Positions 36,762-50,601 of a stretch of DNA of 64,000 nt are shown here, piece after piece (the stretch's first letter is position 1; each line of letters starts with the position of its first letter). A program made the translations under genes and the position numbers. Source of the stretch: Klebsiella phage ZCKP1; sequence record MH252123.1, one strand, 5' to 3'. The notes under the pieces were generated by a model. It was given only the letters and a program-made list of their open reading frames with translations, did not search any database and was not told the DNA's origin.

Positions 36762-37290
36762 CGAATATGTATTCTTCTTTTCACATAAAGATGTGTTTAG
36801 TAATTGGTATATTGCACCCTTTACAGAAACCGAACCAGGTTACAATCAGACATTTAATTGTGTCGAACAATACATGATGTGGCGTAAAGCTTTGCTTTTT
36901 AATGATCACAACACTGCACAGGCTATTCTGACTCATAGTTTGATACGGAAAGATGAGAAGATCCAAGCTTATTACAAACGTATGGGTAGGGCAGTGTCGG
37001 ATTTTGATAACAACGTATGGGAAGAGAACCGTGAGCGTATTGTTATGCGAGGTTTATGCTTGAAATATGTACAGAATCCAGATTTGTATGCAGACTTACA
37101 CCTTTACCAATACAAAACGTTTGTTGAAGCAAGTCCTTACGATAAGGTTTACGGTATTGGAATGGGAATGTATGAACCAGGGGTGCTAAATCCGGTCAAC
37201 TGGAAAGGGCAGAATCTTTTAGGCAAATATCATAACAAACTGATCGAAATACTTTTCCCAGACAAAATACCGCAAAGACGATATTTGTGA
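36748..37290 (+). CDS. NADAR (YbiA-like, DUF1768) domain protein
   Basis: 180 aa; co-linear with E. coli YbiA: FFFS...FSNW, NCVEQYMMWRKALLF, VWEENRERIVMRGLCLKYVQNPDL, VEASPYDKVYGIGMG. Confidence 0.75.
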   Translation: MRITDEYVFFFSHKDVFSNWYIAPFTETEPGYNQTFNCVEQYMMWRKALLFNDHNTAQAILTHSLIRKDEKIQAYYKRMGRAVSDFDNNVWEENRERIVMRGLCLKYVQNPDLYADLHLYQYKTFVEASPYDKVYGIGMGMYEPGVLNPVNWKGQNLLGKYHNKLIEILFPDKIPQRRYL

Positions 37291-37533
37291 TATTTTAACT
37301 TTTTTCATTTTTAGAACAAAGGCGTCACTTTGTAGCACAGAAATAAGGCTCCTACAGCACCGTAGAGAGCCTATTATTTTGTCCTATACAAACCCTTGTC
37401 TTTTTCAGTTTGCATCACTAGGATTCGATCTGAGTGGGTTCCTGAAGGTCTGCCAATAAGATTAAAGGTTATCTCAAATTCCCATTACCTATTATCTCAA
37501 AAATCCCTCAAATTATTTAAACTTTTTAAGAAT

Positions 37534-37580
37534 TTACAAAAGTGAAAGTTGAAAACCAAAATTTAAAGTTTAGGAAAATT
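37534..37580 (+). repeat. ~47-bp direct repeat, copy 1 (TTACAAAAGTGAAAGTTGAAAACCAAAATTTAAAGTTTAGGAAAATT)
   Basis: imperfect copy at 37672..37719. Confidence 0.6.
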
Positions 37581-37671
37581 ATCTTAAAATGTCAGATACA
37601 AAACAAAACTCAAAAGTCAAGGAAAATTTTAAAAATTTTGCGCGCCCACAGTATTTAAAGTTTTTTTGCTT

Positions 37672-37719
37672 TTACAAAAATGAAAGTACAAAAGCAAAAT
37701 TTAAAGTTTACAAAAATTT
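37672..37719 (+). repeat. ~47-bp direct repeat, copy 2 (TTACAAAAATGAAAGTACAAAAGCAAAATTTAAAGTTTACAAAAATTT)
   Basis: matches 37534..37580 with a few substitutions. Confidence 0.6.
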
Positions 37720-37731
37720 ATGCAGATGGGA

Positions 37732-37748
37732 ATGAGAAGAGTTCTCAT
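37732..37748 (+). promoter_or_regulatory. perfect inverted repeat ATGAGAAgagTTCTCAT (operator-like)
   Basis: seen in sequence. Confidence 0.45.
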
Positions 37749-37768
37749 ATGGAAATGCAAATGATAAT
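37748..37768 (+). promoter_or_regulatory. Fur-box-like operator motif copy a (AAATGATAATGATTCGCATTT)
   Basis: matches the Fur consensus core AATGATAATCATT at 12 of 13 positions. Confidence 0.45.
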
Positions 37769-37816
37769 GATTCGCATTTAGGTTTATAAATGAGATTGAT
37801 TCTTATTTGATAAGGT

Positions 37817-37837
37817 AAATGATAATCATTCTCATTT
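37817..37837 (+). promoter_or_regulatory. Fur-box-like operator motif copy b (AAATGATAATCATTCTCATTT)
   Basis: contains the perfect 13-bp palindrome AATGATAATCATT. Confidence 0.5.
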
Positions 37838-38095
37838 AGAAAATGACGCGCAGGGGCGGTGTTTGTCTCGCGCTCCCGTGTCCCCTCGCCATGTAATAAG
37901 AATAACAGATCCAGCCAGGAAAGCAAGCGATTATTTTATCTTTACATTTCTTTACAAATATATAGCGCCCAGCCTACCGGCGATCAACCTTCCAACCAGT
38001 GCCCCTGGTATGTTAGCCCCGCCTTTACGCCGTGGGGTGGCGCTTCCTCTTCTGTATGTAAAACAGTATAAGCCCGATCCCTGGGCTTGTCAAGA

Positions 38096-38362
38096 TTATT
38101 TTTTGTTTTCTTGCCAGGATAGGACACCTAACCAAAAATACATATCGCCCCGCGCCCCTGGTGGGATCTTGCTTTCCCCGCCGCCACTGCAAGCCCATAG
38201 ATAACCATTTGCGAACGTATCAAAATGATCTATCTCTTCCACCTTATGATCGCCCAGGTTGAGAACGGTTTCAACCTTTAAGCCCGTTGCGCTTGCTACC
38301 TGGTGCACCGTGCCGCCTTGCCAGCCCAATGAGTGCATAAGGTGTAATGTAGTATTTGTCAT
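38096..38362 (-). CDS. hypothetical protein, 88 aa; the only minus-strand ORF in the GC-richer segment, doubtful
   Basis: ORF track; weak RBS AAGGGCG. Confidence 0.3.
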   Translation of the reverse strand: MTNTTLHLMHSLGWQGGTVHQVASATGLKVETVLNLGDHKVEEIDHFDTFANGYLWACSGGGESKIPPGARGDMYFWLGVLSWQENKK

Positions 38363-47930: not shown

Positions 47931-48314
47931 ATGAGCAATATCATCAACCTGGCAGCGACTGTAAACGGTAAAGACTTTAACGGCGCTGTAGACCGTGATC
48001 CTATGTGGTGCTTGTCAGTGTTTAAAGGCGACCTGGTTGAAGTTAGAACAACCGAAGGTTATAGCGACGATTATAAATGCGAGATTCATTTACATAATTG
48101 GTACACGGGTAAAACTTATGCGCTGAATCACGCGTTTATCGGAAAAATCGAATATCGTGAGATGATCGACGAAGAAACGGGGCAAGATTTTAGCGAAAAC
48201 GTTTATATTCGTTCAGAAACATTAGCCGAACGTTTGATCGAGAAAATGAAAGCAAAAAATAAAATTAATTTATCTCATTGGATTGATATAACAAACGATC
48301 CAGCTTATCAATAA
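47931..48314 (+). CDS. array ORF, 127 aa; last gene of the array
   Basis: promoter P22; start refined to the ATG after AACGAGGAATCACC; followed by terminator T5. Confidence 0.5.
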   Translation: MSNIINLAATVNGKDFNGAVDRDPMWCLSVFKGDLVEVRTTEGYSDDYKCEIHLHNWYTGKTYALNHAFIGKIEYREMIDEETGQDFSENVYIRSETLAERLIEKMKAKNKINLSHWIDITNDPAYQ

Positions 48315-48328
48315 ATAACATTTCATAC

Positions 48329-48357
48329 CAGGGCGCACCAAGCGCCCTTTCTTTTTG
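48329..48357 (+). terminator. intrinsic terminator T5 closing the array (CAGGGCGCaccaaGCGCCCTT plus TCTTTTTG); duplicate of T4
   Basis: seen in sequence. Confidence 0.7.
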
Positions 48358-49316
48358 CCCGAACAATGTTGATAGATTCCGCCTATGGAAAACAGACACA
48401 GAACAAAACTGAATAAATAGCGGTATCAAGCTAATCAACCATTAAACGAATAACCATACCTCCCAGGGTAACAGGCTGTTAGAGAGCCATTTATAGCGGT
48501 TAAAATCGATCAACAACCAACAACAAACTATCAAAAACACCCTTTTACCTCCTTTCCAGTGCAATGATAACCATTATCATCTATCCATGTTTATCTATGC
48601 AATATAAGTGCATAACTATAATGTTGATAACAGTTCGCAACAACTAACTAACCAACAACCTAAAACAATAAGCAAACTAATCATAATCAAAGGAATAATA
48701 GCAAGATGATTGATAACGACAAACAATCAAACCATGATGAATACTAAGCAAGATAACGATAACACGACAAAACAACCAACTAACGAACAATAACAAACGA
48801 AACCATTAAAATAATAACTATTAGCAAAATAGTGCCTGAATGAAATCATTACAAAACGAATCATTCACAGAGTCATCATTAGCACGCTATGCCGGACACA
48901 TAGCGAGCTAATAATAAGCCAACTACACCCCAACAATCATAACCATCGGTGACGGTTATTTCTTGTTATTGCGTAGCTTGCAATAATTGCAAGCGTAATT
49001 ACGCTTACACTTATTGCGCTGGCTTATTATTAGCATTATATGTAATTACCAAGATCATAACATTAGCGCAATAACAATAATCATTGTGGTAATTACATAA
49101 GGAAACAATTAGCATAGCAATAATTATGGGGGCAATGGGAGGATGATTATCATCATTCCGATACATTGCACACTATGCACATAATAGAATAAAAGTCAAT
49201 AATTTTGGGGGCGAAATGTTACCGCCACAGGCGGGAATGTTGAGCAAGTTCTCTTAAACGTAAATAAAATCAGAAAATTCTTGATTTATTTTAGTTTTTA
49301 TGTTAATAAACGTTTA

Positions 49317-49337
49317 AATAATAATCATTCTCATATA
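49317..49337 (+). promoter_or_regulatory. Fur-box-like operator motif copy c (AAATAATAATCATTCTCATAT)
   Basis: 12 of 13 match to the palindrome; shares the ATCATTCTCAT extension with copy b. Confidence 0.45.
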
Positions 49338-49495
49338 AATAATAGTCTGCTTGTCATGAGCGGGATTAGTTGACAATGTTCCGTCATATGATGAAGTTGC
49401 CAAACCATTGATAAATAAGCGTTTGTGTGATTTATAATCAAGTGGCCCACCTTGTCGCTATGTTGGCATAAGCCTTGCATAAGTCATTGAATACG

Positions 49496-49520
49496 AATGA
49501 TAATTATTCTCATTCGCATG
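49496..49520 (+). promoter_or_regulatory. Fur-box-like operator motif copy d (GAATGATAATTATTCTCATTCGCAT)
   Basis: 12 of 13 match; followed by TGAGAA, giving the inverted pair TTCTCA...TGAGAA. Confidence 0.45.
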
Positions 49521-49855
49521 ATATTTGAGAATTGTCGCTGCGTGGACCTGACGGCCCGAAAATTCGCGTTAAGCACTTCTTACGTATACGCCATGATTTT
49601 TGCCATATGATATTGATTCTATTAGATATTCTTGCCATGATTGCCATGAAACAGGGTGTGTCGAAATAATCTCTCCCCGTGGATATTTTGGGTTACTTTT
49701 TATACAAGAGTGGGGTGTCAAAAATAATCGGTATATATGGGATAATTGATAGGGAAAAGCAATGATAAATGAATTGTAATTGCCGAAGGTTGTTGGTAGG
49801 ATGTTCCTCGTTGAGAGTTACGATGTTTGTCATGAAACCAAGAGAGGAGATTATC

Positions 49856-50260
49856 ATGCAAGAGAGTAAAAATGTTCCGTTGAGTAGTCCAGTGTTGTTA
49901 GCTTTCTATGAAAGTTGGCTTGCTGATCATCATACCAAAGAGCGCACAAGGCATGGGTTATGTGTATGCTTGGATAGTTTTATCTGGGATGAGATGTGGG
50001 ACAGTAACTTCAGTGAGGAACAGGCAAATCAGCTTTGTGCCCTAAGTGATGCGACATTAAAAGAAATGAAGAAACAATTTCGTTGTGCAGGATTGTCTGT
50101 CAGTGTTCCCTTTAATGTGAACTACGAAGACTATGTGCAAGAGCATAACCACAACAGAGCGCATGAAAACAAGCTTCGTGTAGAGTGGGTTAAGGACAGA
50201 ATTCAAGATTGTTTGAATAATTATGAAGAGGTGTTATGCGAACAAAACAAATCTCATTAA
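49856..50260 (+). CDS. family-A paralog 1 (FY..WL...GLC..L...R..WVKDR family), 134 aa
   Basis: start refined to the ATG after AGAGAGGAGATTATC. Confidence 0.55.
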   Translation: MQESKNVPLSSPVLLAFYESWLADHHTKERTRHGLCVCLDSFIWDEMWDSNFSEEQANQLCALSDATLKEMKKQFRCAGLSVSVPFNVNYEDYVQEHNHNRAHENKLRVEWVKDRIQDCLNNYEEVLCEQNKSH

Positions 50261-50601
50261 GTAGTACGATGTTGTTGATGTTTTATAAAAGGTGGTTCGA
50301 AGGGGATACCTCCCTTAATCGCACAGAGCACGGGTTATGTTTATGTATTAATCATTTTGTGCGAAGTCATTATGCAGAGGATGTGCCTAGTCCCAGATGG
50401 TATGATGACATGGTGAACAGTTTGTTATATGAAATGCGCAAGCAATTTGAAGAAGCTGGTCTTAGTGTTGTTAATCCGTTTAACAAAGCATATGCAGATT
50501 ACTTCTTTGAAGTTGAGAACAAAATATGTCATCTGAACCCGCTTCGCATTCAATGGGTGAAAGACAGAATCGAAGATGCAAATAATGCTTGCATTGAATA
50601 A
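50236..50601 (+). CDS. family-A paralog 2, 121 aa
   Basis: MFYKRWF...GLCLCINHF...NPLRIQWVKDRIED. Confidence 0.55.
   Translation: MRTKQISLSSTMLLMFYKRWFEGDTSLNRTEHGLCLCINHFVRSHYAEDVPSPRWYDDMVNSLLYEMRKQFEEAGLSVVNPFNKAYADYFFEVENKICHLNPLRIQWVKDRIEDANNACIE

Follow-up and report, generated by a model that had tools for sequence, protein, structure and literature searches.

The genomes of the Stephanstirmvirinae end in direct terminal repeats (DTRs), as described in a 2025 paper (PMC12695924). Schickermooser has a terminal repeat of 328 bp (Korf et al. 2019, PMC6563267), and in BME3, a Justusliebigvirus, a DTR of 342 bp was determined by PhageTerm (PMC12210895). The passages of PMC6563267 and PMC12210895 considered here give the existence and the length of the repeat only, with no mention in them of an edge motif, a hairpin element, Fur-like boxes or ATTAGCA repeats. 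The DNA analyzed here is a stretch of 64,000 nucleotides of Klebsiella phage ZCKP1 (MH252123.1), called the window below and numbered from its first letter. Its source group is Phapecoctavirus, the phAPEC8-like, virulent E. coli myoviruses of ~150 kb within the Stephanstirmvirinae, a group of phages in wide use in therapy cocktails. The subject is a long gene-free tract around 49 kb which, together with its flanks, is 92-96% identical to ~60 Phapecoctavirus genomes. This tract is very probably the control region of the genome ends (the concatemer junction) of a linear Phapecoctavirus genome with short direct terminal repeats.

The linear record of Schickermooser allows the repeat to be placed. 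Its bases 1-329 are the same as its last 329 bp; the record starts 613 bp before the homologue of phAPEC8_0018, and its end lies 1,223 bp past the terminator behind the phAPEC8_0017 homologue. This repeat maps to window positions 49243-49571 with nine mismatches (97% identity), at the same locus between the two homologues, with the same length and the same edges. The window contains a single copy, as expected, because assembly collapses the two ends. Other deposited records agree with this position. Those of BI-EHEC, WPEC1, WPEC2 and Mt1B1_P17 end at window position 49570 and that of Ro121lw at 49242, while the right junction is found ~329 nt from the record start in Schickermooser, BI-EHEC, Ro121lw, WPEC6 and 3A1_SA_NWU. 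At least six independently deposited relatives thus begin or stop at the same nucleotides, which indicates that the ends are fixed and not permuted. The DTR edges of BME3 fall in the same alignment columns, within 1 nt of the Phapecoctavirus edges (left TTTGTTG/AGCC, where the slash marks the edge; right ...ATCGCGTT, where the record ends). The repeat and its edges are therefore placed in the window by homology to determined ends. The initial annotation had listed a physical genome terminus or packaging site among its possible readings of the tract, and this one is borne out, as the 329-bp DTR of the relatives maps inside it. Ends at 49243 and 49571 would give the correct orientation for this genome and for many Phapecoctavirus records with an arbitrary start.

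Both edges carry a common motif, GTTR/AGCA. Its left form is the same in BME3 and in the Klebsiella phages among the relatives, and the spacing from the left to the right motif is 329-344 bp in every clade, these Klebsiella phages included. The five genomes in which the boundary motifs are invariant (alignment A1: window, phAPEC8, phiWec181, muut and Tr1) span at least three clades. In the replicating concatemer, neighboring genomes would be joined, right arm to left arm, through one 329-bp repeat. A packaging nuclease would cut at two fixed sites, GTTG/AGCA on the left and GTTA/AGCA on the right, and the repeat would be duplicated, so that both ends of each virion DNA carry it, as in T7-type DTR phages. 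The ~900 bp of noncoding DNA to the left of the repeat would represent the extreme right end of the unique sequence, with, in order, the terminator that ends the last early operon, a Fur-like box, a G-poor spacer, the ATTAGCA repeats and the branched element of covarying DNA hairpins. On the other side of the repeat, 285 bp would hold the promoters of the first left-arm operon. By analogy with the T7 hairpin, the hairpin element and the repeats would act as cis-acting signals for end processing or for the initiation of packaging, and the terminase would recognize a site of 60-80 bp at the right cut. The assignment of proteins to binding sites, the packaging direction and a possible role of Fur are inferences only.

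A comparable organization is known in T7, in which the concatemer junction consists of a 160-bp terminal repeat with flanking noncoding repeats, and a hairpin intermediate occurs in end processing. Like T7, the window phage combines a short DTR with fixed ends, structured noncoding DNA on the side of the right arm and promoters near the left end, and in both phages the repeat has to be duplicated during maturation. In contrast to T7, the window phage is a 150-kb myovirus, and its hairpin element is branched, ~150 bp long and located about 210 bp from the repeat. To our knowledge, no phage RNA polymerase is known for this group, so the transcription-coupled processing of T7 need not apply here. 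A DNA hairpin containing the terminal repeat was found during T7 infection, as recounted in PMC4281155 (citing Chung and Hinkle 1990). While a genome terminus in the tract is already published for close relatives, the edge motif, the covarying DNA hairpin element, the Fur look-alikes in the terminal repeat and the copy of the junction in bacterial islands seem to be new, and they are testable. The edge motif, the hairpin element and the island-copied junction offer handles on cis-acting packaging signals. All elements are listed in Table 1.

Table 1. Elements of the gene-free tract and its borders, in window coordinates. A1 is the alignment of five genomes; a slash marks the predicted cut.
Feature	Position	Strand	Remarks
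Intrinsic terminator, end of the upstream early operon	48330-48348	+	GGGCGC-ACCAA-GCGCCC, then TTTCTTTTT
Fur-like box A	48563-48581	+	AATGATAACCATTATCATC; one mismatch to TGATAATnATTATCA
Conserved palindrome TATGCA-N7-TGCATA	48596-48614		just downstream of Fur-like box A; invariant block in A1
A/C-rich, G-poor tract	48625-48875	+	short CTAAC and AATCAT words; stops in all frames
ATTAGCA repeats	48820-49114	+	four same-strand copies (48820, 48878, 49029, 49108) and inverted ATTATTAGC at 48907
Hairpin H1	48885-48905		7-bp stem; conserved loop CCGGACA; 22 sequences
Branched DNA element	48907-49034		15-bp long-range closing stem (48907-48921 with 49020-49034)
Hairpin H2	48939-48959		inside the long-range stem; AT-rich; T-run up to 48970
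Hairpin H3	48976-48994		inside the long-range stem; invariant palindrome GCTTGCAATAATTGCAAGC
Hairpin H4	48991-49006		inside the long-range stem; palindrome AAGCGTAATTACGCTT
Two AATAATTnTGGGGGC copies	49119-49212	+	49119-49133 and 49198-49212; partly conserved in A1
Small hairpin CCGCC-ACA-GGCGG	49222-49234		8 nt before the left DTR edge
Left boundary motif GTTG/AGCA	49239-49246	+	cut after 49242; invariant TGTTGAGC in the five A1 genomes
Direct terminal repeat, 329 bp	49243-49571		by homology to the Schickermooser ends
Fur-like box B	49317-49335	+	in the DTR, ~83 bp from its left end; conserved in all five A1 genomes
Fur-like box C	49496-49514	+	in the DTR, ~66 bp from its right end; conserved in 4/5 A1 genomes
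DTR right junction	49519-49599	+	end of the repeat (53 bp), cut site and the next 28 bp
Right boundary motif GTTA/AGCA	49568-49575	+	cut after 49571; invariant TCGCGTTAAGCA in the five A1 genomes
Two promoter-like units	49641-49729	+	TTGCCA-18-AATAAT at 49641-49670; second at 49699-49728
Ribosome-binding site and start of the first left-arm gene (phAPEC8_0018 homologue)	49842-49858	+	GAGAGGAG and ATG (49856)

To the left of the repeat, a multi-hairpin element of ~150 bp occupies positions 48885-49034, in which hairpin H1 is followed by a branched structure enclosing H2, H3 and H4. Both the perfect palindrome GCGTAATTACGC (48993-49004) and the inverted repeat TTGCAATAATTGCAA (48978-48992) that had been noticed in the initial annotation are present. 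Compared with shuffles, a 181-nt segment gives z values of -6.4 when folded as DNA and, as RNA, of -6.1 for the plus strand and -8.4 for the minus strand. For the analysis of covariation, 22 distinct sequences were used, including metagenomic and viral contigs that were found by conserved patterns and added. Standard pairs make up 98.4% of the cells in the four helices; sliding the partners by 1-3 columns lowers this to 23-47%. Of the 39 pairs, 12 have changed on both sides (1-4 when slid). The covariation score of 0.233 compares with 0.014-0.040 for the slid helices and 0.073 for the shuffled ones, and none of 500 shuffles reaches it. In H1, three of the seven pairs covary and 100% of the cells are paired. 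No helix pair shows a one-sided change of the G-U type in the 22 sequences, which is unusual for RNA helices. This absence fits selection for a DNA hairpin or cruciform, in which both strands pair. The structured element is thus real, and it looks like a structure at the level of DNA rather than RNA. G.T and A.C mismatch cells are distributed over the two strands at ~5 to 4, which is uninformative on the strand of the element, and no Rfam family matches it.

The individual hairpins differ in what is conserved. H3 never varies, which suggests that it is read sequence-specifically by a dimeric protein. At the position of H4, other clades have unrelated palindromes, so that the hairpin is kept and the sequence is not, and relatives at a still greater distance show other long inverted repeats in the corresponding position. 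Four of the 19 ATTAGCA copies of the window fall within 295 bp around the element. This cluster is locally significant, its spacings (58, 151 and 79 bp) are irregular, and KP13-26 has ~8 copies of (T)ATTAGC at the same place. The cluster appears to be a so far undescribed set of candidate protein-binding repeats. In relatives from IMG/VR and metagenomes whose upstream protein is 62-81% identical (L012 5000-6400, L013 5600-6900 and L015 5850-7050), the region looks different: the G-poor tract is absent, pairs of Fur-like boxes are 147-150 bp apart, and different long nested inverted repeats occur, such as GCGACACAATAACACGAGGG ... CCCTCGTGTTATTGTGTCGC. These loci also contain TTGAGCAT motifs and repeated TGTCAAGCTTTTTAT words, which recall the TGTC(A/G)AAAATAAT 17-mers located in the window to the right of the repeat.

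Smaller elements surround the left edge of the repeat. At the position of the small hairpin, phAPEC8, phiWec181 and Tr1 have other sequences, which still form a stem with a 3-nt loop in alignment A1. The two AATAATTnTGGGGGC copies look similar to the units of -10 box and GGGCGG hairpin in the early-promoter array (see below); they may act as rightward promoters, weak or degenerate, that read into the repeat. In the related Klebsiella phages, Tr1 and muut, additional copies of a left-edge word, TGTTGAGCA, are found upstream of the real edge, with a spacing of 67-69 bp in the Klebsiella phages and Tr1 and a shorter one in muut (L016 3512-3660, L017 3368-3445, L010 3266-3345 and L008 ~2598-2625). 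The window has only a weak echo of it, GGCGAAATGTTA at about 49206. These extra copies may be additional binding sites of a nuclease or of the terminase.

The right junction of the repeat was also found outside the phages. In 241 of the 5,426 complete E. coli genomes searched, a match of ~80 bp to window positions 49516-49599 occurs at 83-84% identity; the junction that is copied (49519-49599) measures 81 bp. The island version of the site was compared with 50,697 phage records and matches Phapecoctavirus only (63 records). In strain F5505-C1, a ~12-kb island adjoins tRNA-Leu, and the junction copy is at its edge, immediately behind the gene of a DNA invertase. The genes of this island encode an integrase, a Dit-like tail protein, a tape-measure-like protein, a (weakly) major-head-like protein and a Rep-like protein with iterons nearby. 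Strain cq9 carries a syntenic island next to tRNA-Thr, and the islands range over ~12-13 kb. The copies are located at 9001-9079 of L041 (NZ_CP024257.1, by tRNA-Leu) and 13001-13079 of L043 (NZ_CP031546.1, by tRNA-Thr). In the two islands, the invertase genes and the flanks have diverged, and the block TGATATTTGAGAATTGTCGCTGCGTGGACCTGACG...TTCGCGTT(G/A)A is almost identical. The rest of the 64-kb window has no other match to the island, and no terminase was seen among the island genes. Such independent retention in the islands speaks for the right junction as a functional site. On the simplest reading, a satellite-like element would have taken up its helper's site for end processing, and from this capture we infer that the 60-80 bp around the right cut are a candidate recognition site of the terminase.

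Capture of packaging sites by satellites is known from P4, with its P2-type cos site, and from phage-inducible chromosomal islands (PICIs) bearing cos or pac sites. The islands described here resemble them as integrase-bearing elements of ~12-13 kb next to a tRNA gene, with a short copy of the end site of a candidate helper and nothing else in common with it. They differ in that the candidate helper is a virulent DTR myovirus and in that the island itself encodes capsid-, tape-measure- and Dit-like proteins and a DNA invertase. The islands may be satellites of a virulent phage, and nothing was found in the literature on satellites of Phapecoctavirus. The possibility that the first island mimics the whole phage region, based on a left-cut-like site (14/17) and a CTAAC-rich patch, was rejected; neither is conserved in the second island, and both are therefore attributed to chance. 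Between the junction copy and the tRNA gene, a block of ~450 nt (9540-9990 in L041, also in L043) is nearly identical in the otherwise divergent islands and contains no annotated gene in L041.

The terminal repeat also contains look-alikes of an operator of the host. In E. coli, the operator bound by Fur is a 19-bp Fur box, GATAATGATAATCATTATC, or, in the 7-1-7 form, TGATAATnATTATCA. Using this 7-1-7 consensus with at most two mismatches, seven matches were identified in the window, compared with 0.74 expected, and five of the seven are located in two noncoding regions. The tract has three sites, boxes A, B and C, each with 1-2 mismatches, where the initial annotation had rightly pointed to Fur-box-like operators and counted two. 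Box A has counterparts in the corresponding position of phAPEC8, phiWec181, muut, Tr1 and the Klebsiella phages. The copy of box B is a perfect TGATAATCATTATCA in BME3 and muut, and box C is also found in BME3 and, with more mismatches, in KP13-26. Across clades, the boxes in the DTR keep similar distances from its ends, 83-111 bp on the left and 61-66 bp on the right. A phage-specific variant, AATGATAATnATTCTCATT, describes six sites: the three of the tract and a tandem array of three more, spaced by 29 bp, at 37760, 37789 and 37818. As a control, the ent-fep cluster of E. coli K-12 gave four matches in 26 kb at up to three mismatches, three of them in the known Fur-regulated intergenic regions fepA-fes, fepD-entS and fepB-entC, with 1-3 mismatches. 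By this measure, the phage boxes are at least as consensus-like as genuine operators of the host. In contrast to these operators, they are not demonstrably placed over promoters, and two are inside a terminal repeat; a weight-matrix scan revealed no convincing promoter over box B or C and only weak promoter-like sites nearby. No Stephanstirmvirinae record encodes a Fur homologue, and full-text searches of the literature gave no report of Fur boxes in these phages or inside a phage terminal repeat.

A far-reaching proposal would combine these results with those on the islands: host Fur would be recruited to operators 60-110 bp from each end of the virion DNA and at two other noncoding loci, and the islands would have captured 60-80 bp of the DTR right junction. 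We put it forward tentatively and would sooner doubt than believe it. If the Fur part is true, the iron status of the cell would be tied to end processing or to the earliest transcription, or the replicating phage would be a sink for Fur; functional boxes would mean that host iron sensing is wired into the genome ends of a lytic phage, which would be new biology. If the island part is true, these E. coli islands would be satellites of a virulent DTR myovirus and the terminase recognition site would be defined. A functional relationship would constitute a satellite system for a virulent coliphage, likewise new biology.

The left half of the gap is marked by its composition. According to the initial annotation, ~500 bp are almost devoid of G and T; the skew is real, but the extreme part extends over only ~250 nt and its G+T content is not near zero (A 51%, C 20%, G 11% and T 18% at 48625-48875). 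The A+C content peaks at 72%; its mean over the window is 50.5% (sd 4.6), and elsewhere it does not exceed 66%. The G content alone is not the minimum of the window. The tract is 69% A+T, with a GC skew down to -0.5. G depletion (G 2-10%) is kept in Justusliebigvirus, Tr1 and two Klebsiella phages, in which the tract is A/T-rich and not A/C-rich, and the G-poor tract is absent from more distant relatives. As RNA, the A/C tract has no structure (z -0.5). The best sigma-70 promoter scores in it, 8-10 in the weight-matrix scan, are ordinary background for a window with 77 sites scoring at least 10; the strong promoters (scores 12-15) are all in the 38.8-47.9 kb array and other regions. A variant of the palindrome next to box A is present in Klebsiella phage KP13-26.

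Over the A/C-rich tract, the window and phiWec181 agree to 96-98%, in contrast to their diverged flanks. Purifying selection as the cause of this identity was dropped; mosaic exchange explains it, because the adjoining gene is equally identical. Compared with phiWec181 (L009; window positions 48360-49020 and 49800-50160), identity varies as a mosaic: the first left-arm gene is 96-100% identical and the left half of the gap 85-98%, but most of the DTR reaches 58-75%, the DNA just to its left 45% and the upstream gene ~40%. This pattern suggests recombination breakpoints around the terminal repeat.

Several observations weigh against the interpretation of the tract as a genome-end control region. 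GTTRAGCA is not enriched as a genome-wide signal, with six copies in the window for 4.8 expected; it is too short for specificity, and recognition must therefore need more sequence context. The edge motifs are direct and not inverted repeats, and staggered nicks on opposite strands are not explained by the motifs alone. The ends of the window phage are placed by homology to relatives only, the A/C-rich tract is left without a role in the terminus model, and the hairpin element may serve replication instead of packaging. In a replication origin, an initiator would bind the ATTAGCA repeats and the palindromes, and the hairpins would be single-strand priming signals near the genome end. The AT-rich skewed tract would then be an unwinding element, or the R-loop zone of a leftward transcript with more G than C in its non-template strand. 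The locally significant repeat cluster, the A+T content with its skew and the stable, covarying hairpins with a conserved loop agree with such a function, as does the absence of G-U intermediates expected of a DNA structure, and an origin could coexist with the terminus. However, DnaA boxes are neither clustered nor enriched (one 8/9 match in the tract), the repeats are irregularly spaced 7-mers and not classic iterons of 17-22 bp, and no initiator gene is adjacent, the flanking genes encoding small proteins without known function. The best leftward promoter-like sites are of the ordinary strength given above and are not conserved across genera, and only the G depletion is conserved, not the A/C composition. 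An origin with iterons and an AT-rich region, as the initial annotation had considered, is thus not supported, and we regard this function as unlikely. Far less probable still is a noncoding A/C-rich RNA, unstructured and titrating Hfq, ribosomal protein S1 or a G/U-rich small RNA of the host such as GcvB, which might be controlled by Fur through box A. The AAC/CAA-rich stretches 48511-48528 and 48640-48800 are indeed free of secondary structure, box A and the conserved palindrome lie just upstream, the conserved H2 hairpin with its T-rich run (48939-48970) could end a transcript, and the tract is nearly identical in phiWec181. Against this, no sigma-70-like promoter faces the tract (the best rightward candidate has 9/12 and scores below 7 in the weight-matrix scan), a strong terminator is located 200 bp upstream, and the AT-rich stem of H2 is weak as a terminator. 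In other genera the tract is A/T-rich and the supposed ARN or CA motif is not conserved; the phiWec181 identity extends over the next gene and looks like mosaic exchange. With no promoter above background, no RNA structure and no Rfam match, the RNA sponge of the initial annotation found no support.

Control of the region by Fur is compatible with its probable function as the genome-end control region. Host Fur would bind the three boxes of the tract and the three at 37.76-37.84 kb, and iron supply would gate the transcription that starts in or crosses the terminal repeat, or the phage genomes would titrate Fur and de-repress the iron uptake of the host. The closeness of the boxes to the consensus, including a perfect one in a relative, speaks for this possibility, together with their excess over expectation, the concentration of five of them in two noncoding regions and the recovery of three known Fur-regulated regions by the same criterion. 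Their positions within the DTR are kept across genera, the phages of the group encode no Fur homologue of their own, and the known hosts are all Enterobacterales. On the other side, the lack of a convincing promoter over boxes B and C, the growth of these phages in iron-replete laboratory media and the tendency of AT-rich noncoding DNA to produce Fur-like matches call for caution. The asymmetric variant common to the sites, with its ATTCTCA half-site, could equally be the operator of an unrelated phage protein. A role for Fur is thus conceivable but doubtful.

As for its coding status, the initial annotation was right in part: the tract without open reading frames (ORFs) is real, and its low complexity was overstated. 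No ORF of at least 60 aa occurs within 48358-49768, and the real gene-free gap is larger than that, from 48315 to 49855 (1,541 bp), with the stop of the upstream gene at 48314. The equivalent gap of phAPEC8, between phAPEC8_0017 and phAPEC8_0018, has a terminator as its sole annotation; this terminator is also annotated in Schickermooser and is conserved in alignment A1. In the ETEC-TG record, the same gap is annotated with seven small “hypothetical proteins”. When 14 small ORFs were projected onto the alignment with phAPEC8, phiWec181, muut and Tr1, none of the 14 was open in all four, and in phiWec181, muut and Tr1, the representatives of other genera, stop codons or frameshifts interrupted nearly all of them. 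The tract is considered noncoding because no small ORF remains open in all four genomes, and by this comparison small calls in the gap such as those of ETEC-TG are spurious. A scan for tRNA and tmRNA genes found none, and Rfam gave chance-level matches only, at gathering as well as permissive thresholds. The next gene most likely starts at the ATG at 49856 behind GAGAGGAG, the start that is annotated in phAPEC8, Schickermooser and ESCO13. The first two left-arm genes (49856-50260 and 50236-50601) are paralogue-like; their proteins, as read from the sequence, have a common N-terminal ...LSS..LL.FY..W......R..HGLC.C...F... pattern.

Upstream of this first left-end gene, the direct repeats of 15-17 bp that were noticed initially are present as two 17-mers, GGTGTGTCGAAATAATC (49655-49671) and GGGTGTCAAAAATAATC (49713-49729). 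They lie inside the two promoter-like units and look like promoter elements rather than iterons; the motif GGGGTGTC(A/G)AAAATAAT is kept in muut and phiWec181. The threefold GCCATGA of the initial annotation is also there (49590, 49634 and 49643), but it is not conserved outside the genus. On the other side of the junction, the last ~11 kb of the right arm form an early array that reads toward the right end. Between 38840 and 47856, the weight-matrix scan identified 15 strong plus-strand sigma-70 promoters, mostly TTGACA-16-TAnnnT, in an array that extends to 47884. Most of them are followed ~7-10 nt later by a GTAGGGCGG...CCGCC hairpin and then by a small gene. This hairpin corresponds to the “PHIRE promoters” of the phAPEC8 annotation, which look more like a stem-loop in the 5' untranslated region of host-type early promoters. 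In T5, a first-step-transfer region with an injection stop signal and a 10 kb repeat is known. The two phages have in common strong host-type promoters that drive small genes in the terminal ~11 kb and read toward the end, with repeat-rich noncoding DNA nearby. In contrast to T5, the repeat here measures 329 bp and not 10 kb, the promoter array is outside the repeat, and nothing indicates a two-step injection.

A second noncoding region, at 37.3-37.9 kb, had been regarded in the initial annotation as a mirrored boundary. This was not borne out: since no record of a relative ends there, 37.3-38.1 kb is not a terminus, and it has only Fur-like boxes in the same orientation in common with the tract. 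It consists of ~800 bp (37300-38095) between convergent genes, whose ends are at 37290 on the plus strand and 38096 on the minus strand, and contains three Fur-like boxes (37759-37840), an AT-rich stretch (37460-37720) and a GC-rich part. CDS 00257 of phAPEC8 (window 37863-38204), rich in P, R and S, looks spurious. A near-consensus leftward sigma-70 promoter, TTGACA-17-TATACT, is located at 38093-38065, and the region may encode a Fur-linked noncoding transcript.

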